From assembly GCA_964016885.1 (NCBI GenBank), contig OZ024741.1, forward strand, positions 191,766,001-191,830,000: a stretch of 64,000 bases of DNA. The letters are read 5' to 3'. The position numbers and the translations under genes were made by a program. This document shows, piece by piece, positions 2,860-58,547 of the stretch. Under the pieces are notes generated by a model, which was not told where the DNA came from, did no database searches, and saw only the letters and a program-made list of their open reading frames with translations. Positions within the stretch are counted from its first letter, which is position 1, and each line of letters begins with the position of its first letter. The DNA comes from Eledone cirrhosa (taxonomy: Eukaryota).

Positions 2860-2906
2860 ACGTATATATATATATATATATATATACGTATATATGTATA
2901 TATATG

Positions 2907-14002: not shown

Positions 14003-14780
14003 GACAAATTTAAATTTCAAAACTTATTTGGGTTTTGAAATTTAAATTTGTCTGCGGAACAGGTTTGGATTTTGAAATTTAAATTTGTCCAGGTATCACG
14101 GCTATTGCCAATATGGGTTTGTTTTTATTGATTTATTATTTTAAATCGAGACAGGCAAACTGTATTAATCTAATTAGTATTTTTCAATCTAGCTAACTTG
14201 GTCGTTTACAATACAAACGCTTATATATTTATATTGGTGTTTATCATATATTAATTTATATTAACTTGTATTTCACGGCTCAGAAATGCTTCTTTCTTTG
14301 AGCTAATTAATTGTAAAAGACTGTTTGAGTTTATAACTCTAAATATAATATTTAACGGCTCCTGTTGTTGAGCTAAATTTTAATCCCATATAGAAGGCTG
14401 TTATTTCTAGCAGCATGAGTATGGGGCTAGCTAGGAGCTGGGAAACCACGTGCGTTAGCATTTGATTACCAGTCCTCCAAAAATATTTCGAGGTGAAACA
14501 TGCTAATTTCTGGATACCTGTTGATGACCACAGGAATTGGAATTTTTCACTCTTTTAAATTATCGTTGCGAAACTTATTTGGGTTTTGAAATTTAAATTT
14601 GTCCAGGTATCACGGCTATTGCCAATATGGGTTTGTTTTTATTGATTTATTATTTTAAATCGAGACAGGCAAACTGTATTAATCTAATTAGTATTTTTCA
14701 ATCTAGCTAACTTGGTCGTTTACAATACAAACGCTTATATACTTATATTGGTGTTTATCATATATTAATTTATATTAACT

Positions 14781-14784
<4 letters not shown>
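14003..14784 (+). mobile_element. Non-coding 514-bp tandem repeat (~1.4 copies) with HHR and terminal hairpin (retrozyme-like)
   Basis: CAGGTATCACGG at 14090 and 14604; 14003-14052 is a hairpin with 21-bp arms; flanked by (TA)n tracts. Confidence 0.8.
14513..14611 (+). ncRNA. Type I hammerhead (C3U core, weak stem II)
   Basis: gatacctg-TTGATGA-...-GAAA-cttatttgggttttgaaatttaaatttg-TC-caggtatc; perfect 8-bp stem I. Confidence 0.65.
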
Positions 14785-14845
<61 letters not shown>

Positions 14846-15549: not shown

Positions 15550-16980
15550 AGAACCCCAGAACCACTGATGGGTTTCGGAGAAACTTAAGCTCGTTCTTCC
15601 GTAATCTAGGATTTAGTATAACCATAGAATCTAATATGACTAGGGCCAACTTTTTAGATGTCACCCTCGACCTAGATACTTCCCTCTATTACCCGTACCA
15701 CAAACCTAACGAGTCCCTTAGATATATTAATGTTAATTCTAACCACCCCAGAAACATCACTGATAACTTAGTAAATAGCGTCTCAATTAGAATCTCTGGC
15801 GTCTCGGCTAATGAAGATATATTTAACGCCTCCGCCTCCTACTACAATGACGCCCTCGCCTGCAGCGGATTTAAAGAAAAGATAACTTACCTAGAAACCA
15901 CCGCAAGACTACCTAGGAGGAATAGGCATAGGCAGATTAGTTGGTACACCCCCCCCCCCCTTCAATAGAGAGGTCTCTACACCTGTAGCTAGGACTTTCT
16001 TCACTTTGCTGAACACACACTTCCCCATACAACATAGGTACTACACCATCTTCAATAAGAATACAATAAGACTCTCCTACTCCACTACACCTAACCTAGC
16101 TAGGAATTAAATAAGCCACCTCCGAACCCAATCCTCGGTCTGAAGCCTTGTGCAATTGCCTAAATAAGGAAGCCTGCCCACTTGAAAACAAATGCCTGAC
16201 AAATTACATCGTATACAAATGTGATGTCATCTCAGGCACCGATGATAGCAACAACAAAAAAACTTACATCGGCATGACTTCCAATAATTTTAAGACTCGG
16301 TGGTATGCCCATACCCACTCTTTCAGAAGACCGGACAAATCAAATCAGACAACACTCGCCTCCTATGTCTAGGACCTCAAAAGGAACTCCACGCCCTTCA
16401 CGCTTAAATGGAAACTACTCCAGAAAGCGCTGCGACCTTTGTATCTCAGAGAGCTACGAAATATTATTTGCCAAACGCCCGCTGCTGAACAAACTCTCTG
16501 AACACTGCCCGAATTGCATGCACAAAAACTTTGCAACTTTCAAATACCTTAAGCCAGTGTTAATGCCAGATGGCTAAAAAAGATTCCTTTTTTTTTTTAA
16601 ACCCCACTCGACAAAATACCCCTCCACCTCCTTCCCACCCTACCCCTACCTCCTCTCGACCCTAAACACGGCACTATGGTCATGTAAGTACTTCTTACCT
16701 ATCAGCTCTTTCTTGACCTGTTTCTTGACCGCTGTATCACGTGATTGACTCCCCCTTCGCCTTTCAGGATTCTATCTCGCGTCCTACGAACGTGTTTAGA
16801 AATTCTTAATGAGGTAACCTCTTGATAAGTCGGCAGTCCTCACAAAAATTCTATATCTCTGTGATGTAGTGTTTTTGCATAATATGCCACGAAACTACGT
16901 AGTCGAGGAGTAAAGAAGGAGTTTGGGTATGGTATATCTTATTATTAATTATATCTAATGTTTCTTCTCTCTTCATAATG
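15550..16980 (+). mobile_element. 5'-truncated Penelope-like element, family B (RT thumb, GIY-YIG, 3' HHR)
   Basis: ANFLDVTLDL..YINVNSNHP; CNC..CPL..C..IVYKC..TYIGMTSNNFKTRWYAH; near-identical to 18510-19665. Confidence 0.9.
16818..16908 (+). ncRNA. Degenerate type I hammerhead at PLE 3' end
   Basis: cctc-TTGATAA-gtcggca...tgccac-GAAA-ctacgtag-TC-gagg; two core substitutions. Confidence 0.65.
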
Positions 16981-19665: not shown

Positions 19666-19829
19666 GCATGTAGAGCGTACTTCATCTTAATACTGTATAT
19701 ATGTGTGTATTTGTGTATATTTATGAGTGTATGTATGTACGTATTTGTATGAGTGGATGTACGATTGTATGCGTATGTTTGTGTGTACGTGCGTGTATAT
19801 GTATTTACGAATATGTGAATGTGTGTATG

Positions 19830-19864
<35 letters not shown>

Positions 19865-19869
19865 TGAAA

Positions 19870-21415
19870 AAAGAATTTCTAATTTATCCTCTAATAGATA
19901 TTTTCGAAGCTAATGCCAAATATTATAATAATGCGTTATCTAGGGCTGGATATCCGGACAAAATTAGATACACTAAGGAAACTAATCTTGGCAGAACTTA
20001 TAGTAATCTAGCTAGTAATAATCATACCACTAACAAAAGGAGGAGACCTAGATATAAAATATCCTTTGGTACAACGCTCCCTTCTCTCTTTCAGTTATTA
20101 ATAATATCCCTAAATTATTTTTTAGGGCTAACGAGTACCAATACCTACATTGGCTCTACTTCCACATCTTTTAAAGCAAGACTCTATAATCATTCTTCTA
20201 TATTTAAATATCCACTTAAAACGACCAACACCGCACTCCCAGAACTTATTTGGTCCTTAAAAGACAAAAACATTAATTACGAAATTTCTTAGCGTAAAAT
20301 CTGCAACGCTTATCCATACTCCAATGCTTCCATATCTAGGGTTTGTAATTTATGTCTAGCTGAAAAATTTACCATTATCTCGAATTTCAACTCTATAATA
20401 AATAGACGTACGGATTTATTTGCTCTCTGTAATCATAAGTCCTTCAAGACCTTCCACAAAGTATATAGCTAATGCCCTTTAATACATTCCACGAATAACT
20501 GTTAATTTTTCACACACATATATATTTTTTACTCATATATTTTTTTTTTACACATATTTTCTTCACACATTTTTTTCACACATATTTCATTATATTCTAC
20601 AAAGTATTAATTCATTTTTCCCAGCATAGTTTAAGAGTTTAACCTTTTTCTCTTTTGACTTAAATTTTCGTTCAAACCTTCGTAGATTTTGTAAACAAAC
20701 TATGGCGTTATATGTTTTTCTACGTTTATAAATCATTCTAGCAATTTCCTTTATTTTACTTGTTGATATAAAATAATAATTAAATAGTATACCCCACATA
20801 TATAGATTTTTAATAGAAATTTTTAATTTTGACATAGATTGACTATTCTTATTTTTATTTTTAATCTATCTTATTTTATTTTATTTTATTTTAAAAACCT
20901 TTTTTTTATAAACCTTTTTTTATAATTTAATTTAATTTTTATTTTATTTTATTATTTTTTATTTTATTAATACATTTTTACGCTTCCTAATCCAATTTTT
21001 AGTAAAATAATATACCCAGTATACTCTTATATTTGAATACCATCTATATTATTCGGACATACACCTCATCAATTTATTATTTTTAGCCGTTATTCACAGC
21101 TGTTTTCATCTTGACAGCGTTCCGGATCAAAAGTCTCTCTCTCTTCCTTCTTTCTTTTTTCCTTTTTTTCCTCGCTTCTATTTCTTTTTCCTTTTTCCTT
21201 CTTTTTTATATATATTTCCTATTTTTCTCTTACTCGTATATTTTTATCATATGTAGATTGGACACTTTCTTATTGACAAGTGTTTTTTGGCCTCATATCA
21301 TGTTACCTTATTTTATCTGATGAGAACACAATTTTCGTCCCAGGATGATGTTGTTTTCGAAATGCGCATAATAAAATATATGGAACTTTTTAAACCATCT
21401 TTTAATTTCTTCTTT
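19870..21415 (+). mobile_element. PLE 3' fragment, family C (GIY-YIG, AT-rich 3' region, HHR)
   Basis: YYNNALSRAGY, TYIGSTSTSFKARLYNH, CNLCLAEK; HHR near the end. Confidence 0.8.
21309..21378 (+). ncRNA. Type I hammerhead ribozyme, intact core
   Basis: tattttat-CTGATGA-gaacacaat..gttgttttc-GAAA-tgcgca-TA-ataaaata; perfect 8-bp stem I, palindromic stem III. Confidence 0.88.
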
Positions 21416-24277: not shown

Positions 24278-24857
24278 TCCCATTACTGCACTAGGGCTCT
24301 AGGAACACAACCACAAGGATATGGTCCAAACGTGGAAGAGCCGAACTCCCACTGTCATCGCCTCCATCTCTCTTGTCCTCCCCATCTCTCCATATGGTGA
24401 CCAAATGGGGTCCCACAAGCTGGCCTCCCCACAGCGCCAGCAGACAGAATGGAGACGGCGTTTCCCCGGAGGATGGTAAGGGAGATGCACTGGAAGAACC
24501 ATTCCAACTTACGAGGCTCACTCTTGCGGCTGGTCAATTCCGCGCCTATGGTGGTGAGTAGGGAGGTAGCCCTAGGGCCAAGGACACCAGAAGTCTGCAC
24601 TGCCAAGGGCATGACCGTGAACCTGTCGGAGAGCGGCTGGTACTTGGAGAGTTTGGCCTCCTCAGCCTGATGTACAGCAGAACCTGGGTTAGTCACAAAC
24701 TCCACCAGATTGCGATTGGAGAAAGTGTTGCTGCAAGTGGCATCGCAGACGAGGGGCTTGCCACCGCGGAATGGGAAGATGGTCATGCCATTTGGTCTAG
24801 TGGTTAGGATTCATGGCTTTCACCCAGGCGGCCTGGGTTCGATTCCCGGCATGGGAA
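24278..24857 (+). tRNA. tRNA-Glu(TTC) gene or pseudogene, apparently split: TCCCAT at 24278-24283, body at 24793-24857
   Basis: TGGTCTAGTGGTTAGGATT (A box/D arm), anticodon TTC 24819-24821, GGTTCGATTCC (B box), 3' CATGGGA complementary to TCCCAT. Confidence 0.7.
24284..24798 (-). mobile_element. 5'-truncated non-LTR retrotransposon with restriction-like endonuclease (CRE/NeSL-like)
   Basis: RPNGMTIFPFRGGKPLVCDATC..AEEAKLSKY..PLAVQTSG..ISLTILRGNA (PD-(D/E)xK RLE pattern). Confidence 0.8.
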
Positions 24858-25768: not shown

Positions 25769-26580
25769 GGGTACCCTATCAAAGTCCTTCTCTAGGTCAA
25801 CAAAAGCTAAGTATAGTGGCTTATTCTTCTCTAAGAACCTCTCTTGTAGTTGTCTCACCAAGAAGAGGGCATCTGTTATACAGACACAAAACCCAACTGC
25901 ATCTCATCTAATTTGACCCTTTCTCTAATCAGTTGTGCTAATATTCTTTCTGCCACTTTCATAACCTGATCCATCAGTTTTATGCCCCTATAATTGCTTC
26001 TCTCCAGAGCATCCCCTTTACCTTTGTAGCAATTTATGAGAATACTGCTGCACCAGTCTTTGGGTATGACTCCACTATATGTAGGCTGATTGACGATGCG
26101 TGCAACCAGTTTAGTTCCTACTTCTCCTGATGCCTTCAGCATCTCAGCAACTATCCCCGATGGTCCAGCAGCCTTACCATTTTGCATTTTCTTAATTGCC
26201 TCTTGGACCCTATATTCATCAATCTCAATAGCTGGTCCTTCTGTCTGGTCTACTGGGAGTAATTTCTCTCTCTCCCATTCTTTCTCCACATTCATCAGTC
26301 TCATAATGACATTTCCAGGCCTCCTTTTTCTGATCATTAGTGAAACTAAGTACACCAGCATCATTTCGGACACACTTATCTCCAACAACATCCTGATTTA
26401 CACTGACACACTACCTTGCAATGCAGAACACCGCACATCTCTGATCTTCCCGTCGCAGAACATTGGCAAACCTACTCTCAGCCTCCCTGCATGCTAAGTA
26501 CACCTGTCGTCTAGCTTCTCTTAGTGTATCGGTCTCTACTCCCACCATTTTTCCAAGCGTTCCATGCTAGTCTTTTGTCT
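25765..26580 (-). mobile_element. RTE LINE RT fragment
   Basis: KAAGPSGIVAEMLK, YKGKGDALERSNYRGIKL, MQLGFV. Confidence 0.85.
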
Positions 26581-27480
26581 TTATATATATATAATTATAA
26601 TTATAGCAATATATAGGCCACATTCCAATGCCAGAAATCAGTAAAAAAATATATTGATATATTTGTATGTATATATATTCATTTATTTATTTCGGACATT
26701 GGATTACGGCCATGATGGCACACTGCCTTCGAAGTTTTTTTAGTCATTCATATTGAGTTCAATACTTATTTTATTGATTTACATTTACTGAACTACTAAA
26801 TGACAATTTTGAGATGAAAGTGATATAAATGAACATTAATTTACATTAGTGAACAAATATATACTAATATAGACACACACACATGATGGACTTTCCATAC
26901 AGTTTTTAATTCCACTCACAAGTTATTGATACATGCACACATATTTACTTGTTTCATTCATTGGACTTAAGCCATGCTGAGGAATACTTTGAAGAGTTTT
27001 ATTTTGATACTTATTTTATTGATCTCTATTATTAATCAAATAACTAAGTTCCATTTTTGACATCTCCTAATCCATCCAATACTGTAGTAAACATAAAAAC
27101 AAAGACATATACATAAGTAGTTGCCATCTATTACATTTCTCTGACAAGGTATATATTACAAACTATTTTGAACATATTTCCTCAGTCAATTGTATTTCAT
27201 ATTTGCTGAAAATTATGGACCAGCCTTCAGGTCATTTTCTGCTAGCAATGTAGTGTGGATATTGATATACGCAAATCCGTGTAGGCAACACGGTAAAAAC
27301 CTCCCAGACCCACACTGTAAATGTGGTTGGTGTTAGGAAGGGCATCCAACTGTAGAAAACCTGCCAGACAGTCCTATGCGAGCAAGACAATCACTCTTGC
27401 CTCAAGTGGGAATACCCCCGTCCAAACCCATGCAAGCTTGGAACACGGACGTTAAATGTTGATGATGATGATGATGAAAT

Positions 27481-30400
27481 CATCATCATCGTTTAACGTC
27501 TATCTTCCACGCTAGCATGGGTTAGACGGGAGTTGTCCCACTTGAGGTAAGATTGGTTGGGTGACCGTGTCTTGCTCGTATAGGACTATCTGGCAGGTTT
27601 TCTACGGCTGGATGCCCTTCCTAACACCAACCACATTTACAGTGTGGACTGGGAACCTACACGGCCACATTACAGCGTGGACTGTGTGTGTGTGTTTTTT
27701 TTTTGTTGTGACACCTACGCAGTCTCATTTGTTTGGACTAGATGTTGTGGTACCAACATAATTTTATAGAGAAAGGGTGGTGTTGGCGGAAGTGGGAGGA
27801 TGGAGTAGGGGTAGTGGGTTGGGGTGTATGTTTGGTTTGGAGGGACCTATTGACTGTAGGTTAACTTTGCATGTAGGGAAAGTGGGTCTTGTGTAATACT
27901 GTGTGGCACCAAAGATCTCGAGGTTCAAGTGTGCAAGGTCGGACTTTATCATGTCATCCCAGGTTTTTCTGGATCTACCTACTCTGTAACTTCCATAAAT
28001 TTTGATCGCCCTGCACTTTTTTATACAGCTGTCACCTTTCATACGCATCACATGACCATACCAGTGTAATCTTCTCTCAAGTAAACAGCATCCGATCCCT
28101 CTTATTCCTAATTTCTCACTTAGTTCATTTAAGCATGCATGCTTCGTTCCTTTCCAGTCTGCACACAATGCCCATGTCTCACTGCCATGTAAGATTGCTG
28201 TTTGTATACAAGCATCATACAATCTACCTTTCATTTTTAGAGAGAAACCTTTTGTGGCCAACAGCGGTATAAGCTCTCTGAACTTTTTCAATCCCGTTCT
28301 AAGTCTGGCTACTGTACTTTCAGAACACCCACCACCACTGCTGATTTTGTCACCCAGGTAATGGAAAGTGTCCACTATTTCTATAGAACCATCTGGGCAG
28401 TAGAAGGAGATAGTATGCTGTGGGTACTTGCTACTTATTGCACCTGAGCATTGGCCACATAAAATCTACGTTCTTAGATAGCTTACCTGTGATCCCACTA
28501 CATCTTTTATGTGCCCATAGTTTGCATTTGGGACATAGAATGGAATTTCTGCCTACTCCTTTCCTACATACTGAGCATGGCCATTTCCCAGAAGGCACTT
28601 GTGTCCTATTTTCCTTTCTACATACTAGAACTTTAGTCTTAGATAAGTTAACTTTAAAGCCTTTTGATTCTAAGCCATGCTTCCATGTTTGGAATTTCTT
28701 CTCTAGTTCAGCCATAGATTCAGCTATGAGCATTGGATCATCTGCATATAGAAGTTCCCATGGGCAGCCAGTCTTAAACTCCTCTGTTATAGAATGAAGG
28801 GCAATAATAAACAGGATGGCGCTAAGGACAGAGCCTTGATGAACACTGACTTTTACACTAAATTCTTCACTATATTCATTGTTAATTCTAACCTTACTGA
28901 CTGTATCTTTATACATGGCTTGTATAGCTCTCACAATTCCTAGCTTTCAAAGGGCCCACCAGATAATGGAGCATGGGACTCTGTCAAAGTCTTTCTCCAA
29001 GTCAACAAAAGCTAAGTAGAGGGGTTTACTTTGAGCTAGGTACTTCTGTAGTTGTCGTACAAGAAAAAGAGCATCTGTCGTAGTTTTACCTGACACAAAC
29101 CCAAACTGCATTTCATCTAGATCAATTCGTTCTCTGATTAGTTGCGCTATAACTTTTTCTGTAACCTTCATGATCTGGTCAACTAACTAACTTAATGCCT
29201 CTATAGTTTCCCCTACCTAGAGCATCTCTTTTACCCTTGTATCAGTTAACGATGATGCTGCTATACCAGTTATTTGGTATGACCCCATCATTCCAGATGC
29301 TTACAACATCTCAACAACTATCTTCGAAGGCCCAGCCACCTTGCCTGTCTTCATATCTTTGATTGCCTTACTTATTATACAACCACTAACTTGCACCACT
29401 GGTCCCGCTATTGGATCAATTTAGGGCAGACTATCTTTTTCCCAGTTATTCTCCTCATTTAGTAGTCTCTCATAGTGACACTTCCAAGCTACCTTCTTAT
29501 CAGCATCAGTGATGGCAAGTACACCATCATTACAGACACACTTCTCCCCGACAATATCACGGTTTTCCTTGACACATTGTCTGGCAATCCTGAACACCTC
29601 ACATTTTTGGTCCTCACGTTGTAGAACATGCTTGAACTTTCTGTCCTCTACTTCCCTTCTTGCAAGGTACACTTGTCTCCTAGCTTCTCTCCTGGCCACT
29701 TGATAGTGTTCTCTACTTCCCCCATCTGCCATACTTTCCAAGCCTGCTTTTTGGCCTTGATTGACTCCTCCACCTTACTGTTCCATCACCAAGTTACTCT
29801 CCTCCTGCCTATAGGTCTGCTCCAGCCACAGATTTCATCTGTTTCCTTCGGCAGGTTAATTTTCAAAAATTCCCACTGAACCTCTATATTGTACGTCTCT
29901 TATTGCTCTTCCTTACTGTCAAAAGCATCAAGTAATAAGCTTTTAAATTTGTCACTGGCTGTGGGGTCCTTCAACTTCCATATTCTTCTCCTCGGGGTAG
30001 TCTTCCTCTGTTGTTGAGTACGTCTAGTCCTGACGATGAGGTCACTAACTATGAGGCTATGTTGGGAGGTGCATTCTTCACGGGGGAGGGACTTAGTGTT
30101 TACAACAGACACTCTGTCATGTCTTCTAGTAAGGATATAATCTATCTGGCTGGCGTGTTCCCCTTCTATAGGTGATCAAGTGATTGTCTCGTTTTTTGAA
30201 GTTTGTGTTACAGATAGTTAGGTTATTAGCATCACAGAATTCCAGGATTCTGAAGCCTTCCTCATTTCTAGTACCAAACCATAGCCTCCATGGATTCCAT
30301 CATAGCCATCACAATGTTGTCCAACATGACCATTAAGGTCATCAGCAATAATTATATAGTCACTGTTGGTTATTTGGGAGGTAGTGAACATTAGCAACTC

Positions 30401-32209: not shown

Positions 32210-32799
32210 CTGTCCCACATGCCCTTCCTAACGCCAACCACATTTACAGTGTGTGCTGGGTGCTTTTTGTCATGACTCCTTCACAACCACTTTACAGTGT
32301 CGACTGGGTGCTTTTTGTCGCAACACCTACACGACCACATTACCATGTGGACTGGATGCTTTTTATCATGACCACTTTACAATGCAGGCTGGATGCCTTT
32401 TTGTGATACCAGAATAACTTTAGAGTGCAAGGGTTGGAGTGGGGTGGGATGTATGGGAGGGAGTATAGTGATTAAGAAGAGCCTACAAGATGTACGTTTG
32501 AGTCCATGTACAGGGAAGGCGTGTCTTCTGTATTACTGCAAAACACCAAAGATCTTGACCTTATGTCTTTGAGAGGTGCAATTGCACAAGGTCAGCTTTT
32601 ATCACCTCGTTCCTGGGTCTTCCTACTTCATATCTTCCATCAATTTTGATCACCCTGCACCTTTTTACAACTGCCGTCCTTCATACGCATCACATGACCA
32701 AACCAATGTAATCTCCTCTCTAGTATACTGCATCTGATCCATTTTATGCTTAGTTTCTCTCTTAGTTCATTTACGCTTTGTCATTCGTGTATATTACTA
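32210..32799 (-). mobile_element. RTE LINE 3' fragment
   Basis: RRLHWFGHVMRM and the shared RTE 3' UTR. Confidence 0.75.
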
Positions 32800-35478
32800 C
32801 TAGCTGAATTACCCAGCGTTGCCCGGGTTACTTCTGTTCTTATTCAGATTAGTAAGCAATAAATATGAAGATATGTTTTTTTTCTCATAATTATTTCAAA
32901 ATATCTATATTTTATTAAAAATATATCAAAATTGTAATGATAATAGAATTTAGAAATGAAAATCTGTCAATTTTGAAGCACCTTAGGGTAAACAATATTC
33001 ATTGTGTAATGCTGTCCAAACGAATAAATTGTTTCTCACATACATATACTAAGACAGACACACATAGATATACATTCACGCAGACACACACACAACTTTT
33101 CACCTCATTTTTGGTCAGTTGCTACATATGTGTAGATGTGTGAGTGTATTTAATCACGAACCAATGGCGTGTTGTTTTCTATTGTTTTAATGCAAATGAA
33201 AATAAAATTTATCACACATACACTCACATATCAAGACAGACACACACAGACATACATTCATGCACAGCTACACTCTCGCATACATATACTAGGACAGACA
33301 CACACAGACATACACTCACGCAAACCTATTACTTGTCAGTCACCACATATGTAGATGTGTGTGTGTGTTTAATTGTCTGTGTGTGAAGATAATGTGTATG
33401 CAACTTACTAACTCTATATGTATGTGTGTGTTCCTCCTCGTACTTTTGATTATAACACCTCGTTGTAAACAATGTTCTTTGTTTTTCCGCGTCGTGCAAA
33501 TGCGAAAAGGTTTCCTATGCTCCCCACACAGGAACACCCAACGTACAATTGTTCGTGTGAGAAACATGTCTCTTCCAAGAAGTCCGGCGTCTGACCTTGG
33601 GATTTGTTAATGAACATTGCAAAGTTGACACGAATTGGAAATTGCAGACGTTTGAATGAAAAGGGAATTTCTGCTCCTGATGGAATGAAGATGTCATCAC
33701 TTTTTCCACATCCAGAAAGAATTGTTGCCTCGATAACATGTGACATCATTTTCTTTACCACCAATCGTGTCCCATTGCACAGTCTTGGGAGATCTAGATT
33801 CCTAAGCAGCATTACAGGAGTTCCAACTTTAAATCGTAATATGTGGGGAGGTAGTCCAGGAGGCTCCAATGAATTGAGAAATTCTGGAGGATAGTTCACC
33901 ACTTCATTGGGATCTGGGATTGTGTCGACAGACTTATGTGAAGATTTCCTGGAAGAGACAGCATTAACTGTTCATTGAGTTTATTAACAGCGATGTTTTT
34001 TGGAGCCATTATTGCTCTTTCGAACAGCCATTTGTGATTTTGGTAATTTTCTGTCAAGTTCGGAAACACTTGGTCTTTCAGCTCCTCCACAGAATGAACA
34101 ATGGTACAAAATGGCCAGACGTCTATTTCTCCGGCAGTGTTGAGAGGCACCTTGCCATCGCCAAGTATCAAAATGTCCTGTGCAAACCTGGCGGACATGT
34201 GGTCACCGTGTAGTTGAGCTCTCATGTTAGTGGTAAGAGTCAGGGTCGTAACGTGTAGCCACAATGGAGAGGATTTAAGGCACGCCTGGACTTTGAGAAT
34301 GACGGGAAGAGTCTGTCCGAAATCACCAGACAACAGAAGCATTACACCTCCCATTGGAGCATGACAATCTCTGATATCTCTAAGGGTTCTATCTACTGCT
34401 TCCAGAGCTCCTTTGTGGGCCATGGTGCACTCATCCCACACAATGAGATGACACCGTTTGAGGACCTGACCCTGGTCTAAGCTTTTACTGATGTTGCAGG
34501 TAGGTGTTTCAGATGTTGCTAAATTCAGGAGGAGTTTAAAAGTCGAGTGCGCTGTCCTGCCACCGGGCAGCAAACTAGCAGCAATCCCAAAGGAGGCAAC
34601 AGCTACCGTGATATCCCTATGCTGCCTAACTTTTGCAAGGAGCTTTCCTACAAAAGTTTTTCCTGTTCCTCCAGGTGCATCCAGGAAGAAGATACCTCCT
34701 TTTCGGTGGCGCACATGGTCAACAATAGTGCTGTAAGCCTGTTGTTGGTCCGGAAGTAGTTGTGGTTCAGTGTCAATAACATATTGGGAAAGAGCATCAA
34801 TGTTGTAGGATGCTGTGAGAAGTATGTTTGACCCTGTTCAGAATGTTTGGGGCAGGCCATATGTGGGAAAATCATTTCCACCGAGTGAAACAATCCTGTC
34901 TTCTATATCAATCAGTGCTCTGTTGTAGACCTCATCGCTGGTACCTTCCATGTCAGGGTACTGCAGTTGTGCCAGACGTTTAAAATCTTCAGAAAGATCA
35001 TCTCTGTACTTGAACCACAAATACGAAGGATTACACAATTCACATGTTTGCAACAATAATTTCAAATAGTATCAACTTTTCTTTGTTCTGTAAAATCAAA
35101 GACAGTAAAACGACTTATTGTTAAACCTTCAACTGATATACTTTGATCTATTGTTTAAGTCGGTGTGGGACGTCTCTCTCTCTCTCTAGAAAGAGATACA
35201 ATTAAAGTGTTAGATATTGAGAGAATATCTAACACTTTAATTGTATCTCTTTCTGCCTCTCCCTCTGTGTGTCTCAAAAATGATTTTTTTAGTCGATTTT
35301 TCTCTAATAGAGGACGCAGTAGACACAAATTTGAAATTTGAAAATGTAATGAGTTCGTACGAAGGTCAGGAGCATAACGCATATTTGTGCCAAATTTGAA
35401 GAAAATAGGTTGCAAGTTGTAGAAGTTACACGGAAACAGACACACACACACTCACACAGTCTATTTTATATATATAGA
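32800..35478 (-). mobile_element. Internally deleted Helitron retaining PIF1 helicase, both termini recognisable
   Basis: 5' A|TCTATATATATAAAA (35478); 3' hairpin ACCCGGGCAACGCTGGGT then CTAG|T (32800); [49 protein letters not shown]. Confidence 0.92.
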
Positions 35479-36107: not shown

Positions 36108-38902
36108 CAGTGTTTCGAATTTCATCAGTCAAATAGTTGGCTTCTTTAGTGAGAAATGTGTGCCTGGCTTTTATTCATAATTTCTTCAATGTTTGGTCGA
36201 ATATGAGACAGACACACCCTCATTTCTTCTTCCGTTGTACGTAATCTCTCACGCTTCTTGCTTTTGATGTTGTTTAATGTTGAGAATCCTAATTCACATA
36301 TATAAGAAGTTGAAAATTGTAATAAGATTGCTAAAGCTCTTTTACATAATATGGGATACTCCTCTTGAATTGAAATCCAAAATGAATCAATGGGCAGAGT
36401 CGAATGTTTTAATTTTAACCCTCGGTCACTAGAAAGGATGGCCAATTCTTCTTCTTCCTGTAACTCAAGTTCAATGTTGGAAGAATGATTTATGAAAGGA
36501 TCTCTAATCCAATCATACTTTTCTGTCTTTAATGACAGAAAGTAATTGTTGATGCTTTCGTCCAGGGCTGTCAGATGAGTAACCACAAAAGGGATCATTT
36601 CTCTAATGCAGGTAAAACGCAATAAAGGGAACATATCAAGATTGCCAGTGATTCGTAATTTTCTTTTTGAGGGCAACTAACTTGTCTGTTGAAGTGAGAA
36701 TGTTTTCGTTTTTACCTTGCACACTACTGTTTGTTTTTATGATAGTAATTCCTTGTGCAGTTCGTGAACACAATTTAGTACTTTGACTTTCGACAGCCAG
36801 CGAACCTCAGTGTGCATTAATAACTTAACATGCTGAGAGTCCATCTCTTTGCACAGTTGTTCAAATAATCGTGACTTCAATGGCCTACTTTTTATATAAT
36901 TGACCATTCCAACTTGATGTAACACAACCTTTAAATCTTCCTGCGATATTTTTGAAACAAGAATTTCTCTATGTAGAAAGCAATGATACGAATGAGATTT
37001 GGATTTTCTTTTTCTACGAAGGATACAAATCCTTTAATACAGCCTGTCATACATGGGGCTTCATTGGTGAAAATGCCAACACAGGACTTCCAAGACAAAT
37101 TCATTTCTTTGAGGTAGCCTGTTATCAAATCAAAAATATCTTGATCACCTGTAGTTGTGGGCATTTCTTTAAGGCACGAAAAATTGATTGATTATTTCAT
37201 TCTCGTCAATAAAACGTACAAATGCAAGCAATTGACTTTTATTACTGATATTCATCCACGGTTAAAGCAAAATTAGAATTCTTAAACTTTTTCTGAACAT
37301 TGTCTTCAATATTTTTCGATATACTGGGATTCTTCTACGTATTGTATCATTTGGAAGCGGGATATTGTTCAATTCCTTCTCAGCCTTTTCACCAAACATG
37401 GATTTTACCATCTTTTTGCAAGCTGGGAGGATGACTGACTCAGCAAGCGTGTGGGATTTAGATTTTAATGCTATTATTTCAGCCACCTGAATTGACGCTA
37501 GTTGGGCTCGTTCAGACACGGTCATTATTTTTTCAAAATAACTTCGCTGTTTTGATTTCTGCTCTAACAGTCTTTGAAAGTAATCAAGCTTTTTATCTTT
37601 CAGAGATGAATGTTTTGAATTAAAATGTCTTTCTAACTTACTTGGTACCATGGATTCATTTGACATTGTTTCACCGCACACAACGCATGACCAATAAAAT
37701 CCAAATTTCAAATAATTTTCACAATATTGTCAATTAATGTTTCTCTTTTTGACAAAAAGGTTGATGGTTGTTCGCCTCTGGACTTAGACTCGTCACTAAT
37801 ACCTTTCCTTTTCAAATATTCATCCATTGTGAAGGGTCACGAAATATCAATATGACAGTTTTTGGTAGGAGTATCTATATTAAGATGACAATGTCTTTCG
37901 GTCCCACAAAGCCTTCTCTTTCGTGTACAAACACAGCAAAACAATGAAAATATGTCTTCTTAACTAAAATTAATGTTTTATAGCTGGAAATCATCAATTT
38001 TCGATGTATTATGCACAAAAATAGTCAATGTTTGATCACTGACAACACATCGTAAATCCGCCATTTTTGCTATGTTCCACACACTAGTAGACAGCTACAG
38101 GCCTCTACTATACCATCATTAGCATAAGACGATGAAACACTGGAACTCTCCAGTGTAAAAAGTCAGAAAATCAACCCATATTGAACAAGCAAATGCACAT
38201 CAAGCTTCCTTTTCGGCTACACTCGGTGAATGGCTTCTGCTGATTAGTCCAGTACATCACGTGACCACACTTTCCCCCATCACAATATAAACATGGCGTC
38301 CAAACTCACTCTTCCGATGGGATAATCCACCAGAAAATTAGGAAATTATGCCATATAGAGATGAAGCAAGACAAAATATATGTGAAGGGAAGCTAACATG
38401 GACTCATTAAGTAGCATGAACCAGAGAATTTTGAGCTAAATCATCGGAATCATCCATAGATTGTTCCGAAGCAAAGGAAGAAGCTGACATTTGTGTTTCT
38501 AATCTTTACAAGCAATTTTCTCAAAATGGGTACTTCTCAAAATTTCAAAGCTCTTTCTAGAAAATCTACTCGAAAGATTTGCTTGAAATTTTTAGAAGAC
38601 CTTCCTTATAAGAGTAGCTTCATCATGACAGAAGCCTTTTTTTTTAAATTCTGCCTTGGAAAAATGTATTGACCAATATCCATTCATATGATCAATACTA
38701 ATGACGAACGAAACAATAAAAGATATAGAATTTTTAACATTGCGACATTTGGAAACATTTCGCTCATCCCTAAATGAACAAAGCTATGTGGTGCAACATG
38801 TTACACCACAGACTGTGAATACTCAATTGGGATCACGTGGTTTTTTTACATTTTCTTAGTGTGCTGTTCAAAATTTCGTGGCACACTGGTTGAGAATCAC
38901 TG
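36108..38902 (-). mobile_element. hAT (Buster/Charlie, ZBED5-like) transposon with fragmented transposase
   Basis: CVVCGETMSNESMVPSKLERH, HTLAESVILPAC, LPNDTIRRRI, HTEVRWLS, FSTSYICELGFS..QAHISH; terminus CAGTGATTCTCAACC at 38902; left boundary uncertain. Confidence 0.85.
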
Positions 38903-39520: not shown

Positions 39521-40120
39521 GGAGGCACATGGCTTAGTGGTTAGAGCATTGGCCTTGCAATCGAAAGGTTGTGAGTTCAATTCTCAGACCGGGTGATGTG
39601 TTGTTTCCTTGAGCAAGACACTTTATTTCACATTGCTCCAGTTTACTCAGCTGTAGAAATGAGATGATTCCACTGCAAAGTGGTCGTGGAGGTGCCACGG
39701 CAAAAAAGCACCCTGCACTCACTGTAAATGAGGTTGGTGTTAGGAAGGGCATCCAGCTGTAGAAATCAAGCCAGAATCAGTTCCCGTCCCACCCTTGCAA
39801 GCAGGGAAAAGTGGACGTAAAATGAGATGATGATGATGATGATATTATATATATATGTGTGTATATCATCATCATCATCATCATCATTTCATTTTATGTC
39901 CGCTTTTTCCCTGCTTGCAAGGGTGGGACGGGAACTGATTCTGGCTTGATTTCTACAGCTGGATGCCCTTCCTAACACCAACCTCATTTACAGTGAGTGC
40001 TGGGTGCTTTTTTGCCATGGCACCTACACATCCAGTTTACAGTGTGGGCTGGGTGCTTGTTTGCCGTGGCACCTCCACGACCACTTTGCAGTGGAATCTA
40101 ACCACTAAGCCACGTGCCTC
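39521..40120. mobile_element. Tail-to-tail pair of CORE-SINE/RTE-tail elements
   Basis: + copy 39521-39842 and - copy 39866-40120 meet at (GAT)n/(ATC)n and are largely reverse complementary. Confidence 0.8.
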
Positions 40121-43380: not shown

Positions 43381-43436
<56 letters not shown>

Positions 43437-43437
<1 letters not shown>

Positions 43438-44003
43438 TATAATTGAATATAAAAGAAAAACGAACACAGACATATACATATATGTGTTCAAATCGTAAGG
43501 GACCAGATTCGCTAAGGTGAAAAGAATACTAACCATAGACAATAGGGTTTGCCAAACTCAATTTAAGAATAAATCAAGAAAATAAATACAAACCGGAATT
43601 GTGGTAACTACCAATCACCCAGACAGCTTTGGTAATGCTGTTTTGCAAAATTAATTGTGAAGAGGAATACCGATTCTTGCTCATCAGTGGGTGAAGAATT
43701 AGTATCCTGGACACTTCTAAGAATATTAAAAAACTGAATAGTGTGCGTATATATAATAACGCACATGGTATCTGAACTTAGCGTGTCTCACAAACTCACA
43801 CCACTAAAAATAGCAGCCAGGTTTACTCAACATTTGAATTAGCTCAACAAATTAATGGGGCCGATTTGAACACATATATGTATATATCTATGTTCGTTTT
43901 TCTTTTATATTCAATTTTAATATACGGCTCGGAAAAATCTCTTTCCTAGAGCTATTTTATTGTAAGAGACTATTTTGAGTTTCTAACTCAAAATATACCT
44001 TTG

Positions 44004-44005
<2 letters not shown>
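43437..44005 (-). mobile_element. Diverged relative of the 514-bp HHR unit, with inverted duplication
   Basis: 43437-43495 is inverted at 43862-43922; shares ACGGCTC..GAGCTA..TTGTAA..GAGTTT..AACTC and GGCTG.TATTT..ACCA.GTGCGTTA blocks with 14275-14460. Confidence 0.7.
43615..43694 (-). ncRNA. Type I hammerhead with G12A (GAAA>AAAA)
   Basis: Minus strand: tcaccca-CTGATGA-gcaagaat..attttgc-AAAA-cagc attaccaaa gctg-TC-tgggtga. Confidence 0.8.
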
Positions 44006-44055
<50 letters not shown>

Positions 44056-44737: not shown

Positions 44738-47700
44738 ATACTTGGAGAGGGTCATATTGTTGTAATAATATTGCCAGAAATAATAACAGAACACACTCAC
44801 TGTTTGGTTGGTTTTCGCTTCTGTATCTTTTATATGTCCACAGTTAATTCATCTGGTCCTCAATGTTTATCATTGACTGATCCACGGTCAAAAATACAGA
44901 TATAAATACATATATATAATCTAACAAAGTTCTTTCGTTACACATTTGCAACATCATCAGTGGTACTATTATGTTCCTCCTGTTGTATTGTATGTCTACG
45001 CCATTTTTATTTTATCTATTTATTTATTGTTGTCTTCTTCTCTGCGCATGCGTTTGCGTGTGTGTATAGTGTTTGGGTGACTGTGTTTTGGTTATTGTAT
45101 TCTATCTTAGTTTACTAGTGTGTGTTTATATGTTTGTTGTTATTGTGCTTGTGTATATATTTATTTATTTATTTATTTATATTTCTCTTAAGTCAGTATT
45201 GTTTGTTTGGGTGTTGTTATTCCATTCATTTTTTTCTGTTTAGCTTTGGCTTTCTAAGCTCTATTTCGCTTGCCTCTCTGATTTGCCTACCTGCTGGGTC
45301 ATTTCTATGTTTAGATATTATTTTAATTTCTATGTTGTCTATGTTACCGTCATGTTGTTGTCTGGCGTGTTCGTATAGTACTGAACCGTTTTTTCGTCCT
45401 TTTAATTCCACCAGTGTTGGTCTATCCTTTCTCCTATGCTTCGAGCTGTCTCGCCTATGTATGTTGTTGGCATGTTTCTGCAAGTACCCTCTGTGCATCT
45501 TATGCTATAGACTACATTTCTAGTTTTACAGTTTATCTGGGGGTTTACGTTACATATAACGCATTTCCTATTAGTACAGTGGGTTTTCTTAAAAGGGTAT
45601 GTTTTGCTGATCAGGGATTTTATGGTAGTTCCTGGCTTTAATCTTTAAATGGGTCTTTCTCAGGGCCTTTCTACAGTGGTTAGCTAATTTCTCTCCAGGG
45701 GTAGCGTCCACGAACATGACACTCTGGTATCTCTGGTTGTCGTACCATGTGGTGGCTTTCCCTATCTTATGTTTAGTCCTATCTATGCTATTCCATGATT
45801 TGCTCCTGTAAAATGGGCAAATTCCTTTCATGTCCAGTTCTATGAGGGTCTTATACTTCTCCGTGGCTCCTTTGGATACTCTGATTCTGTCTCTTTGGTT
45901 GTAGCCAGAGAACTGCATGCGGTTGATGAAGTGTTGGATGTGTCTTTCCATTTCTGTTGGGTCGCACATGCGGGACACATTCTTCATCACTCGTACCAAA
46001 TCTGCGATCAGAATATTAAACTTAGCACTATTGGACACTGTTGAGTTTTTGAGTATCAGGTATTTGGAGGCTATGGGTTTAGCGTAGTGTGAGTGGAGAA
46101 TTTGGGCCCTCTCGTCTATAGTGTTAATCCAGAGTCTAATACAAGTAGTCTATTGTTAGGGTGTTTGGAAGGGTAGTCGATAGTTATGGTTATACTCTGG
46201 TGTATGGAGTTAGCTATCTGCTGGATGTTTTCCATTGTGCTACATTCTAAATCATACTTGTTAGTACTCTCTTGTGGGGGTGTCCTTATTACTATATTAA
46301 TATCGTCTACGTAACTAGAGTACATGATGAGGTCTATGGAGCTCTCATCAAGGAGATCTTTGAGTCTCCTTTCCCACTATACCATAAAAAGGTTGGCAAC
46401 GTCACCAGCTATGCTGACGCCAATGGCTGCTCCCTTATTTTGGGTGTAGATCTTTTCGTTGAATTTGAATATATGGCCCTTTAGGGTAGTTTTAATACTA
46501 GCCCCTATTGCATGTACGACTATTTTTCTGATCTGATCATTGTTTTGGGGGGTCCGCATGGCTTTGGTCCATCCAATTCACCTTCCCATGGGTGTCGTTG
46601 TTGCCATTGAGGTTATGGTGGGGGGGTTTACCTCTTATGGGTCTATTGGGGCAGAAACGGCTAAGGTCATGGCTGTCTAGGTACTCGGTGTCATAGGTAA
46701 GTCTAAGTAGGAGGCCCAGTTCATTTGTGTCGACATCGCAGAACTCCACCTCACTCTCACTGATCATCTCCACACATTTTTCCACAGAAAAATCAATGTT
46801 AATGGATGGGTATAGTGATACCACGTCCATACTGCCTATTATAGGTTTTTGTTTTTGATGCACTCATTGATTCTGCTGAGGAGGTCCTCTGTACTGTCAC
46901 ATACATCTGGGGACATCTTGATTATGGGGTGTATAACCATTGAGAGGAAGTAGGAGATCCTGTAGTTGCTAGCGGTATTGGCTCCGCATACAGGTCTTGT
47001 TGGTGGTCCTGTTGTCGGGTCGTCGACTGTCTTATGGTCTTTGCGGAGCCCATACAAGGGTGGTATGTCATTGTTAGATGCCTGGAAGGTGTTGGCAGTG
47101 CGTCTGCTTGGCTTTAGGATGTCGGTCCACATCATCATGTGAGCATTGAGGATCTTCTCTCTCCCCTCATGTGTTTGTTGTGTAATTTCGCTCGTGTTGG
47201 TGATGTGGGGTTGCATAGCCTTGATGTAGTTTGACGTGCTGTCTATCGACATCCTACCAGACTTATCTTTGGGTAGACACACTACCTCACCATCCCTTGT
47301 GCGCTGCTTGAGGCTAACTAAGCCTTTTACAGGTTTCCTTCCAAGTTGTTGGACTTCTGGTCTGCTTTGTCTCTTAGTATATCGGTCTACTATTTGTCTA
47401 ATTTTATTTCTAGCTATGTTGAACTGTGCCTCTGTCTCGTCATCTATTTGTTGTGGTATACAAACCCTTTTATTAAAGGGTAACCTCGTAGGATAAATAT
47501 TACCCATCTTATAAGTTTTGTCAGCTGGGTTGAAGAATATTTTCTCTAAGGGGGTGTCATTATGTCTATCGTCATAGTTGTGTGTGTTGCTATTATTGTT
47601 ATTATAGTTGTTGTTGTTCCTACCATTAACATTATTATTATTGTTATGATTGTTAGATGTATTGTTGTTGTTACTGTTATTTCTACCATTATTTTTATTA

Positions 47701-48560
47701 TTATGTTTCTTGTTTTTGATGTTGTTGTTGTGGTTGTTTTTGTGTCTATCACTAATGTTGCTACTCGTATTATTTCCATTATTACTACTGTGGTTGTTGT
47801 TGTTCTATCTATCGTTAATATTACTACCATAACTTTGCCTTTCATCCTTACGGGGTCGATAAAATAAAGTACCAGTAATACACTGGAATAATTGGTGGCC
47901 TTGTGCCAAATGTAGAAACAATTATTACTATTTCTCACTCTCCTGCTATTGTTATTGTTATGACTATTACTATTGTAGCTGTTATTTCTATACTCAGAGT
48001 TATTGTTTATATTAGTACTATCGTTATTGTTGTTGTTGTTGTTGTTTATTTTTGCATTCCAACGTATTTTTGTGAAACACTTTTCCAGCTCCGTTTTACA
48101 CTCGATTGGATTAATCTTTTTGTAGATAGCAAATTTCGGTGGGAGCTGTAGAGCCTGTTGTTCTTGTTCATGGATTAAAGTGTTCCCATAAATATTTATT
48201 GTGTGGTCTTTGGTAAACTCTGTCAGTAATGCTACGTCTGTCATACAGATATTGTTGATCTTATCTGGGTATTTTTGTAAATTTTCTATTTTCCTTTCTT
48301 CTTGTTTTTTTCTTCTTCATCCATTTTAATTTCTTATTGAAATGTCTATTGCATTCGTTTTGAGCATATTTTGTTTCATGTCGAATGATGCTCATGAGTT
48401 CATTTATCTCGTTTGGTGTGGTGAGATTTTGAATTTCCTTAACGTTAACGCATTTCTGTTTGTAAAGTTCGTTAATTTTCATATATGTTATTATATGTGT
48501 TCTGTTATTATTTCTGGCAATATTATTACAACAATATGACCCTCCCCAAGTATAACAATA
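44731..48560 (-). mobile_element. Penelope-like element copy 2 (Naiad-like) with inverted pseudo-LTR end
   Basis: Frameshifted RT/GIY-YIG homologous to 5562..7424; PPLYGLRKDHK, YVDD; 48496-48560 is the reverse complement of 44731-44795; short SINE fragment inserted at ~47828-47922. Confidence 0.9.
44923..44964 (-). ncRNA. Type I hammerhead in PLE pseudo-LTR (degenerate)
   Basis: Minus strand: acca-CTGATGA-tgttgca aatg tgtaac-GAAA-gaac-TT-tgtt. Confidence 0.6.
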
Positions 48561-55237: not shown

Positions 55238-58200
55238 TCATCATCATCATCATAATCATCATCGTTTAACGTCTATCTTCCACGTTAGCATGGGTTTAGA
55301 CGGGAGTTGTCCTACTTGCGGCAAGAATGGTTGAGTGACCATGTCGTGCTCGTATAGGACTGTCTGGCAGGTTTTCTATGGCTGGATGCCCTTCCTAGCA
55401 CCAACCACGTTTACAGTGTGGACTGGGAGGTTTTTACCGTGATACCTACACGGCCACATTACAGCGTGGTCTGTGTGTTTTTTTGTCGTGACACCTACAG
55501 GACCTCATTTATTTTGGACTGGATGTTGTGGTACCAACATAACTTTACAGAGAAAGGGTGGTGTTGGTGGGAGTGTGTGTGTGTGGGAAGGGGGGGGGAT
55601 AGGGATAGTAGGATGGGGTATATATTTGGTTAAGAGGTGCCTACTGACTGTAGGTTTCGCTTTGTACATAGGCAAGGCGGGTCTGCTGTATTACTGCGTA
55701 GCGCCAAAGATCTCGGTCCAGTGACATTGTCTTAGAGAGATGTAACTGTGTAAGGTCAGAATTTATCAAATCGTCCCAGGTTTTTCTGGGTCGACCTACT
55801 CCATAACTACCATCAAATTTGATCACCCTGCACTTTTTTTATACAACTGTCGTCTTTCAAGCGCATCACGTGACCATACCAACGTAGTCTTCTCTCGAGT
55901 AAACAGCATCTAATCCCTCTTATTCCTAATTTCTCACTTAGTTCATTTATGCTTTGCCGTTCACGTATATTACTATTACACATCCAACGGATCATGAATG
56001 CTTCATTCCTCTCCAGTCTGCGCAGATCCTCTGCACACAATGCCCATGTCTCACTGCCATGTAACATTGCTGTTCGTATACAGGCATCATACAATCTGCC
56101 TTTCATTTTTAGAGAGAAACCTTTAGTGGCCAATAGTGGTATTAAGTCTCTGAACTTTTTCCATCCATTCTGACTCTGGCTACTGTACTTTCAGAGCACT
56201 CTCCACCACTGCTGATTTTGTCACCCTGGTAACAGAAGGTGTCCACTATTTCTATAGAACTATCTAGGCAATAGAAGGAGCTAGTATCCTGTGGGCACTT
56301 GCTACTTATTGCACCTGAGCATCGGCCACATAAAATCTACGTTCTTAGATAGCTTACCTGTGATGTGATCCCACTACATCTTTTATGTACCCATAGTTTG
56401 CATTTGGGACATAAATGGAATTTCTACCTACTCTTTTCCTACACACTGAGCATGGCCATTTCCCAGAGGGTACCTGTACCCTATTTTCCTTTCTACATAC
56501 TAGAAATTTAGTCTTAGACAAGTTAACTTTAAGTCCTTATGATTCTAGGCCATGCTTCCATGTTTGGAATTTCTTCTCTAGTTCAGCCATCGATTCAGCT
56601 ATGAGAGTTAGATCATCTGCGTATAGAAGTTCTCATGGGCAGCCAGTCTTGAACTCCTCTGTTATAGCCTGAAGGGCACTAATAAATAGGAGGGGGCTAA
56701 GGACAGAGCCTTGATGAACACCAACTTTTACGCTAAATTCTTCACTATATTTGTTGTTAATTTTAACCTTGCTGACTGTTTCTTTATACATGGCTTGTAT
56801 AGCTCTCACAAGCCATTCATCAACACCTAGTTTTCTAAGAGCCCACCAGATAATGGAGCAGGGGACTCTGTCAAAGGCTTTCTCCAAGTCAACAAAAGCT
56901 AAGTATAGGGGTTTACTTTTAGCTAGGTACTTCTCCTGTAGTTGTACAAGGAAAAGAGCGTCCGTGGTACTTTTACCTGACACAAACCCAAACTGCATTT
57001 CATCTAGATCAGTTCGCTCTCTGATTATTTGCACTATAACTCTTTCTGTGGCCTTTATGACCTGGTCAACCAATTTAATGCCTCTATAGTTTCTCCTATC
57101 TAGGGCATCTCCTTTACCCTTGTAACAGTTAATGATGATGCTGCTACACCAGTCTTTTGGTATGACTCAATTCTGTATGACTTGGTTTACTATCCGGGTG
57201 ACCATAGTGTTTCCCACCATTCCAGATGCTTTCAGCATTTCAGCAACTATCTCCAGGCTGCCTTGCCTGTCTTCATATCTTTGATTGCCTTACTTACTAT
57301 ACTACCTTTAACTTGCACTGCTGGTCCCTCTATTGGATCGATTAGGAGTAGACTATCTTTTTCCCATTTATTCTCCTCATTTAGTAGTCTCTCGTAGTGA
57401 CACTTCCAAGCTACCTTCTTATCAGCATCAGTCATGGCAAGTACACCATCATCATTACAGACACACTTCTCCCCGACAATATTACGGTTTTCCTTGACAC
57501 ATTGTCTTGCAATCCTGAACACCTCACGTTTTTGGTCCTCACGTTGTAGAACATGCTCGAACTTTCTTTCCTCTGCTTCCCTTCTTGCAAAGTACACTTG
57601 TCTCCTAGCTTCTCTCTGGCTACTTGATAGTGTTCTCTACTTCCCCCATCCCGCCATATTTTCCAAGCCTGCTTTTTGGCCTTGATTGACTCCTCCACAT
57701 TACTGTTCCACAACCAAGTTACTCTCCTCCTGCCTATAGGTCTGCTCCAGCCACAGATTTCATTTGTTGCTTTCAGCAGGTTAACTTTCAGGAATTTCCA
57801 CTGTTCCTCTATATTGTACGACTCTAATTGTTCTTCCTTACTGTTAAAAGCATCAAGTAATATGCTTTTAAATTTGTTACTGGCTGTGGGGTCCTTTAAC
57901 TTCCATATTCTTCTCCTAAGGATAATCCTTTTCTGCTGTCGGGTACGTCTCGTCCTGACTATGAGGTCGCTAATTATCAGTCTATGTTGGGAGGTGCATT
58001 CTTCATGAGGGAGGGATTTAGTGTTTACAACAGACACTCTGTCACGTCTTCTGGTAAGGATATAATCTACCTGGCTGGTATGTTCCCCTGATCTGTAGGT
58101 GATCAAGTGATTGTCTCGTTTTTTTATTGTCTCTGTTGTCGAGTACGTCTAGTCCTGCCTATGAGGTCACTAACTATTAGGCTATGTTGGGAGGTGCACA
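55238..58200 (-). mobile_element. Decayed RTE LINE, same family as 27481-30920
   Basis: SQVDYILTR, SQHRLII, AFVDLEKAFDRV, VGVHQGSVLSPLLF, LLYADD, LHGSETW. Confidence 0.92.
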
Positions 58201-58547
58201 TATCACCATCATCATCATCACCGTTTTATGTCCGTTCTTCCACGCTAGCATGGGTTAGACGGGTTGTCCTGTTGTGAGCAGTGTCCAGTCGGCTGACCTT
58301 GTCTTTTTCATACGGGAACTGATTCTGGCTTGATTTCTACAGCTGGATGCCCTTCCTGACACCAACCTCATTTACAGTGAGTGCTGGGTGCTTTTTTTTT
58401 CGTGGCGCCTACACGTCCACTTTACAGTGTGTGCTGGGTGCATTTTTTCTGTGGCACCTCCACGACCACTTTGCAGTGGGAGGGTGTGGGGCATATTGTC
58501 TATATGCTTCAGCTTCGACTTGTACCCGTGGGGGGTCGGGTCTTCTG

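Follow-up and report, generated by a model that had tools for sequence, protein, structure and literature searches.

What copies the short hammerhead-bearing repeats scattered through the genome of Eledone cirrhosa (3.0 Gb), and by what signal? The question is raised by a 64,000-nt stretch of contig OZ024741.1 (hereafter the window), which is rich in (TA)n and retroelement fragments. Positions 43434-44011 of the window hold a single insertion, built of two arms, of the 517-nt hammerhead repeat that we call family B; a relative, family A, lies near position 14,100. Table 1 gives the layout of both.

Table 1. Coordinates of the family B insertion, its parts, and related copies (window positions unless a locus is named; blocks on the minus strand read from high to low)
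Feature	Position	Strand	Remarks
(TA)n target, left flank	43383..43441
Left arm, family B insertion	43434..43863	-	Hairpin 2, hammerhead, fixed 3′ end E1, then (TA)n; 431 nt
Conserved blocks TTGATTTATT, GGCAAAC, TTAGTATT, TAGC, TGGTC	43501..43577	-	TTGATTTATT 43577-43568; GGCAAAC 43553-43547; TTAGTATT/TAGCGAA/TGGTC 43532-43501
Type I hammerhead	43615..43694	-	Stem I TCACCCA/TGGGTGA; constrained fold -18.6 kcal/mol
Hammerhead core CTGATGA	43687-43681	-	Followed by stem II
Hammerhead core AAAAC	43644-43640	-	G12A in window copy; stem III AGC/GCT
Hammerhead GTC	43624-43622	-	Predicted cut after 43622
Conserved blocks GGCTGCTATTT, ACCATGTGCGTTA	43757..43818	-	GGCTGCTATTT 43818-43808; ACCATGTGCGTTA 43769-43757
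Hairpin 2	43841..43863	-	One change in window copy; at the inversion junction here, after E2 in the repeat unit; GTTGAGCTAA 43848-43839
Right arm	43862..44011	+	Passes E1, hairpin 1 and the 86-nt tail before stopping at fixed 3′ end E2; (TA)n follows; 148 nt
Hairpin 1	43925..43953	+	Lower stem GGCTC/GAGCT, 2-nt 3′ bulge, upper stem GGAAA/TTTCC; after E1; block ACGGCTC 43924-43930 (+)
Small hairpin TTGAG/CTCAA	43975..43991	+	Within the tail; one also predicted in family A
(TA)n target, right flank	44004..44051
Sister family A insertion	14004..14785	+	514-nt deletion variant of the 551-nt unit; ends at E1
Hairpin 1 of family A insertion	14277-14304
Hairpin 2 of family A insertion	14357-14374
Hammerhead of family A insertion	14513-14611
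Family E	L254 (G000:C1:42755500-42761000), L166, L260		Young two-armed arrays; twin hairpin present

The first-pass annotation had described this copy as a diverged sister of a 514-nt unit near 14,100, with shared blocks in the same circular order and an inversion about 43862. The homology is significant. With 14004-14785 as query, blastn matched 43850-43438 (60.6% over 439 nt, E 9.5e-16) and 43869-43997 (72.9% over 133 nt, E 2.5e-18); the local alignment scores of 195 and 126 compare with dinucleotide-shuffle maxima of 107 and 67 (0/300 each), and every named block was located in the B copy, in the circular order that the annotation gives. The inversion is genuine in that two arms are joined 5′-to-5′ at that point, but no palindrome is centered on 43862, and mirror symmetry of the arms is confined to about 60 nt (43434-43495 versus 43862-43923). 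A 514-nt unit is what the window holds, but A units are usually 551 nt long; the shorter form lacks a 37-nt duplication situated in stem III.

The hammerhead, described by the annotation as having a stem I of different sequence that is nonetheless paired, is a type I ribozyme on the minus strand with exactly that property. Where GAAAC is expected in the core, this copy has AAAAC (G12A), a change carried by a minority of family B: CGAAAC occurs in 36/48 parsed copies and the core is fully intact in 30/48, while G accounts for 7745/7825 of the depth at core position 12 in contigs of unspecified kind from one public sample. Given this change and its single ribozyme, the copy in the window is likely an inactive product. 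Every unit carries a type I hammerhead, as is characteristic of retrozymes, and stems I to III are maintained with differing sequences across families A, B, and E. Cores vary among A subfamilies (C3U, U4C, and U4A; L034, L044, L126, L150, and L174), and many A copies duplicate 37 nt comprising GAAAC and stem III, so that two registers are possible. An Rfam scan at the gathering threshold returned a tRNA and no hammerhead. The hammerhead call is based on core motifs and family comparison, because free minimum-energy folds of the isolated ribozymes are no better than shuffles (z of -1.0 and 0.1).

Head-to-tail units with at least two ribozymes, the definition of "active" in a 2026 preprint (10.64898/2026.07.22.740005), occur at locus L090 and in A and E arrays; the window copy is not one, and they are rare in B. 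Among the loci fetched, a regex found two same-strand ribozymes in B at L090 only, at 519-nt spacing, and the 100 listed B sites held one pair at 519 nt and one at 329 nt. Family E, with a 472-nt period, five ribozymes within one arm, and a canonical core, is better suited than B to activity tests.

Family B is numerous: The exact 19-mer of its ribozyme occurs 250 times in the genome, giving at least 250 ribozyme copies, whereas the candidates from first-look DNA searches (3275 and 3726 for B, 2507 for A) are not copy numbers. Copies of B are mostly two-armed inversions of 1-1.5 units, and A forms tandems of up to about 3 units. Sampling of hairpin-pattern matches yielded C, E, and F as further non-coding sisters with hairpins, along with the autonomous families Y, Z, and W; in F (L161, G000:C1:65212500-65218500) the twin hairpins lie 140 nt apart and the descriptor found no hammerhead. 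L102, considered as a third family, proved to be a microsatellite match only. The annotation had called the family old, which stands for the A/B superfamily but not for B itself, whose spread is fairly recent. The A and B consensuses are 63.9% identical (37-nt duplication excluded), and median B arm identity to consensus is 93.7% over 40 unbiased loci.

Conservation between A and B is structural. Folded independently as circles, the two consensus sequences yield predicted folds with 76 base pairs in common, arranged in 11 helices; 150 substitution-matched controls, changed at the same positions, gave 30.5 ± 10 common pairs and reached 76 in 0/150 cases. Two-sided changes in the common pairs numbered 5 (controls 1/150). 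This excess supports the earlier suggestion of structural selection, and most of the blocks that prompted it are helix strands of the common fold. Four of those at 43501..43577 are strands of helices predicted in both families, GGCAAAC is paired in both with a shifted register, and GGCTGCTATTT forms a hairpin GCTGYTA/TAGYRGY in both; no helix common to the A and B folds was assigned to ACCATGTGCGTTA. A protein-coding reading was rejected: nine PLE proteins or fragments, run by tblastn against the A and B units, gave a best E of 0.39, no frame stays free of stops for more than 68 aa, and 4/28 indels between A and B are divisible by three. The blocks thus encode no conserved PLE peptide, and the description of the family as non-coding holds.

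Copies of A and B stop at one of two sites, E1 or E2, and are followed by (TA)n; the spacing between the sites is 86 nt in B and about 83 nt in A. Because the first B query favored the inverted arrangement, we drew an unbiased set of 40 loci carrying the exact ribozyme 19-mer (the first 45 list places minus five already examined). Where both ends of an inverted copy in this set were defined, the arms ended one at E1 and the other at E2 in 17/17 (binomial p 7.6e-6); in 6 more inverted copies at least one end lay elsewhere. Direct copies ended at E1 or E2 in 15/17 cases. TA follows 47/54 defined ends, as insertion into (TA)n would leave it. In the earlier, partly query-biased locus set, one arm per site was found in 28/29 B, 9/10 A, and 16/17 copies of PLE-X, an abundant autonomous element described below, among inverted copies with both ends defined; the PLE-X exception is two adjacent insertions, and inverted copies with another end numbered 12, 5, and 4, respectively. 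The units contain numerous other AT-rich tracts, which are unused as ends. Together with 5′ truncation, partial tandems, inverted 5′ arms, and a tail at one of two 3′ ends, these copies have the features of PLE insertions. The annotation had proposed checking whether any copy abuts an RT ORF; a copy adjoining one as its pLTR was seen at 0/40 unbiased B loci.

Arms exceed one unit in 15/63 cases. The repeated parts of such arms share 15 variants versus 1 not shared at L090, and in seven others the variants are mostly not in common, so that long-arm repeats are no proof of one circular template. Halting of 5′ ends at hairpin 2 was considered for B and found no support (3/63 arms).

Each fixed end lies directly 5′ of a hairpin of the form GGCTC-(stem)-TT/TA-GAGCT, alike in A and B. 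PLE-X has this same motif pair ahead of its ATG, at the element's own two ends, and the module also stands before the ATG in families Y, Z, and W, which have about 40% amino-acid identity to X. Genome-wide, the hairpin-1 pattern occurs 8250 times (reversed control 2) and the hairpin-2 pattern 1927 times (reversed control 20); some matches are unrelated, as at L158-L160, in an endonuclease region, and the chance-like L169. Across seven families with differing sequences, hairpin 1 shows pairing at 28/28 upper-stem positions (permutation 1/5040), where the structure was defined on those very sequences and the permutation tests are blind to relatedness. At the free position of the pattern, 96/100 of the first matches listed pair when scored by eye; about 15 do so as G·U and 3 show A·C, an imbalance that favors the sense RNA strand. 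The lower stem GCTC/GAGC shows no covariation because it is invariant. PLE-X, the very abundant family, has the most divergent hairpin 1, and the partner may be any of the Hydra families. The annotation had guessed that its conserved motifs might be RT-recognition or promoter signals: The former is supported for ACGGCTC and GTTGAGCTAA, which are halves of the twin hairpins directly after the fixed 3′ ends and are common to autonomous Hydra PLEs; the other blocks are strands of the common fold.

PLE-X encodes a 713-aa RT plus GIY-YIG protein. RW[KR], DK[TS], CxCX5C, CxxC..E, and CxH are found in 32/32 of PLE-X and 31 homologs, while a regex for GIY-YIG at the C terminus matches 25/32; Pfam returned no family for PLE-X. 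Published hallmarks of the Hydra clade are an RWK-type motif, DKT, a CxCX5C linker, a CxxC/CxH endonuclease, a C-terminal GIY-YIG, and (TA)n targets (PMC8557442). Judged by its translated sequence, PLE-X has the protein features of this clade; an identity as Nematis was dropped, since the features fit the Hydra-clade description (PMC8557442). Solo pLTR fragments of PLE-X carry the same ends as the full element. Outside the module, neither A nor B could be aligned with pLTR regions from families X, Y, Z, W, and V (z at most 3.3), and the z values up to 3.3 came from regions containing the module or low-complexity DNA.

The module extends to marine metagenomes, where we collected 78 related loci, 52 of them with at least 120 nt 5′ of the ORF. 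GCTC..GAGC lies 5′ of the ORF in 49/52 of these Hydra loci, compared with 8/149 in ORF-window controls and 1/52 in reversed sequence, and 31 loci have two motifs. The hairpin-1 upper stem is paired at 69/81 positions versus 45 when shuffled (0/5000) and hairpin 2 at 56/81 versus 46 (5/5000), the latter a weak covariation; these counts use 27 distinct motifs each, and some loci are near-duplicates. Where a second terminal copy ended inside the contig, it did so within 5 nt of a hairpin at 10/20 loci by our own count, and four of the other second-copy loci are read-through tandems.

Several further observations concern PLEs in and beyond the window. Broken fragments resembling PLE-X, of Hydra type, occur at 876-2900 (-), 15498-15968, 17547-18365, and 19819-20292; the first of them has a hairpin-1-like motif (2766-2798) at its upstream end, on the strand opposite its ORF. 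Another PLE of the window, probably Neptune-like by its motifs, is present as two copies within (TA)n at 44740-48560 (-) and 5085-7439 (-), with a weak RVT_1 match, and as a fragment at 13055-13540 that precedes the family A insertion. A hammerhead-like core lies near 44960 with no twin hairpin, and the motif was absent from the Neptune-like elements at the three end regions checked. At L061 (4215-4219), L068 (1389-1394), L087 (1268-1283), and L157 (~3000), Hydra elements and retrozyme copies adjoin one another, as they often do, in keeping with repeated hits on the same (TA)n tract. The B-to-RT junction of L061 is no proof of a template switch, since nesting explains it: B is complete there (E1 and E2), and both elements target (TA)n. 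L045 (131-300) is a chimera in which a PLE-X tail ending at E2 is followed by a 21-nt inverted pLTR piece and then, via a 5-nt overlap, by family A; this one case is suggestive of a template switch. Elsewhere in the window, a tRNA match at 24786-24857 (+; 37.6 bits) adjoins an RT-like fragment and may be a pseudogene or a SINE head. Related 48-50-nt tandem repeats of 2-3 copies (32235-32372, 39979-40093, and 58371-58478) are probably ends of a common dispersed element. The segments 11584-12606, 25876-28946, 33450-34837, 36146-37729, and 56633-58148 presumably comprise fragments like an LTR-retrotransposon integrase, RTE-type RTs, a Helitron helicase, and a hAT transposase.

We consider it quite probable, from comparison of these sequences, that the window insertion belongs to a type of non-autonomous retrozyme copied by a Hydra RT-endonuclease that binds the twin hairpins and starts just 5′ of them. 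A rare two-ribozyme copy would be transcribed, cleave itself, and be ligated into a 517-nt circle; the ligated circle is probably the template. The Hydra protein would bind hairpins 1 and 2, probably as a dimer of the kind predicted for a Poseidon element, cut both strands of (TA)n, and extend one DNA end from E1 and the other from E2. Two cDNAs would then run backwards round the template, often for more than one unit, before being joined 5′-to-5′. As each hairpin lies 3′ of its start, it would be copied only if the template goes round or continues through a second unit. The Poseidon PLE PAc has two internal RT starts bounding a tail, with both strands cut and extended and a predicted dimer, and its activity in vitro does not need ribozyme cleavage (PMC11167929). 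Other metazoan retrozymes are circular RNAs for which PLEs have been proposed as partners (PMC7229834), and for PLE-type minimal hammerheads cleavage, ligation to circles, and reverse transcription beyond one unit were proposed (PMC4209133). A broader proposition, which we put forward tentatively and believe a little less than we doubt, is that the twin hairpin is a clade-wide loading signal of Hydra RTs: A dimer would grip both hairpins of a single RNA circle and prime each end of a DNA break from a site of its own, and the ribozyme circles A, B, C, E, and F of this genome would survive by virtue of a module of about 110 nt alone. If so, grafting the module onto any circular RNA would make it a substrate.

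The same partner and starts could instead act on a linear template, an uncleaved read-through transcript of a partial-tandem locus, with the hammerhead a passenger or serving RNA turnover only. Ribozyme mutants left insertion in vitro unaffected (PMC11167929), 18/48 parsed B cores are mutated, A subfamilies have spread with C3U, U4C, and U4A cores, and the repeated parts of long arms mostly carry variants not in common, all of which such a template would accommodate. It sits less well with the rarity of two-ribozyme or long tandem B loci when 15/63 arms are longer than a unit, with the retention of stems I to III under different sequences in A, B, and E, and with the circular RNAs of other metazoan retrozymes (PMC7229834); we judge it unlikely, though a serious competitor. 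Distinctly improbable, in our view, is that the hairpins work at the DNA level or in transcription (as endonuclease recognition site, promoter, or terminator) and that ends arise there by annealing of AT-rich sequence to a (TA)n primer. In its favor, hairpin 2 lies 30-100 nt 5′ of the ATG, a position reported for PLE promoters (PMC8557442), the two ends are AT-rich, a number of pattern matches start exactly at hairpin 2, and the endonuclease of D. virilis Penelope required the tail for recognition (cited in PMC11167929). Yet the upper stems are compensatory around a fixed 2-nt 3′ bulge, G·U prevails over A·C, and the other AT-rich tracts of the units do not serve as ends.

B and A might also be solo or detached pseudo-LTRs of an autonomous PLE family outside our sample, much as solo pLTR fragments of PLE-X share its ends and as the preprint derives vertebrate retrozymes from pLTRs (10.64898/2026.07.22.740005). 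We hold this to be very improbable: Past hairpin 2, A and B run non-coding to their own ribozyme where Hydra elements begin the ORF, a PLE ORF stands in pLTR position at none of the 40 unbiased B loci, nothing beyond the module aligns to the pLTRs of X, Y, Z, W, and V, and the A/B ribozyme has a full stem III where Hydra pLTRs have a minimal one. Across five autonomous families and about 100 B loci, the expectation of a parent pLTR was not borne out. Spread of the repeat as a satellite by DNA recombination, or its domestication by the host as a non-coding RNA, is scarcely credible; tandems do exist (about 3 units in A, five ribozymes per arm in E) and the fold is conserved, but the copies are dispersed, 5′-truncated, and 5′-inverted, and their 3′ ends are fixed and lie in (TA)n, just as is the case for PLE-X.

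Copying by a Hydra protein through the twin hairpins, the reading we prefer, would bear on several questions. In the accessible literature the enzyme that copies retrozymes and the target it recognizes are proposed, not shown; a covarying element shared by both partners turns the question into a mutate-and-restore test. The one-arm-per-site rule is genomic support for two-site, two-strand priming as the origin of the Penelope tail and of inverted insertions, and in other genomes the motif can serve to mark the ends of Hydra elements and their non-autonomous partners. This locus contributes a direct tie of circularly permuted non-coding families to Hydra elements via one module, and a fold that two families have kept at 64% identity. 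Published work already covers retrozymes, their link to Penelope elements, and initiation at two sites; the shared hairpin and the counted arm rule appear new to the literature searched. There, in its accessible parts, we found neither a twin hairpin shared by retrozymes and Hydra PLEs, which subscription papers, Repbase notes, or bioRxiv supplements could hold, nor a counted one-arm-per-site rule.

Set beside known systems, as far as their accessible texts describe them, families A and B resemble metazoan non-LTR retrozymes (PMC7229834; 10.64898/2026.07.22.740005) in their non-coding units of a few hundred bases with one type I hammerhead each, in their dispersed monomers and short tandems, and in having a PLE as the proposed mobilizing partner. 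They differ in that the partner clade and a cis signal are here suggested from sequence, in that B consists mostly of two-armed inversions rather than the arrays of retrozymes, and in that they show no homology to the sampled pLTRs outside the module, whereas the preprint's retrozymes have pLTR homology (10.64898/2026.07.22.740005). With Hydra-clade PLEs (PMC8557442) they share (TA)n targets, partial tandems, inverted 5′-truncated arms, a tail at one end only, and a hammerhead 5′ of the ends. The tail is 83-86 nt here versus 30-40 in that paper, which attributes it to endonuclease resolution, whereas the tail here separates two copies of one hairpin; the twin hairpin and a non-autonomous Hydra partner are absent from the paper's accessible text (PMC8557442). 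The ribozymes of B, A, and E are of monomer type, with a real stem III and a long loop 2, and those of the Hydra pLTRs here are minimal (cf. PMC4209133). Poseidon PAc of Anolis (PMC11167929) is alike in its two internal starts with the tail between them, its two-strand extension, and its AT-rich targets; it uses one AC-rich stem-loop inside the ORF and no target homology, where the elements described here have a hairpin of their own at each site, outside the ORF, and a strict one-arm-per-site pairing counted in genomic copies.
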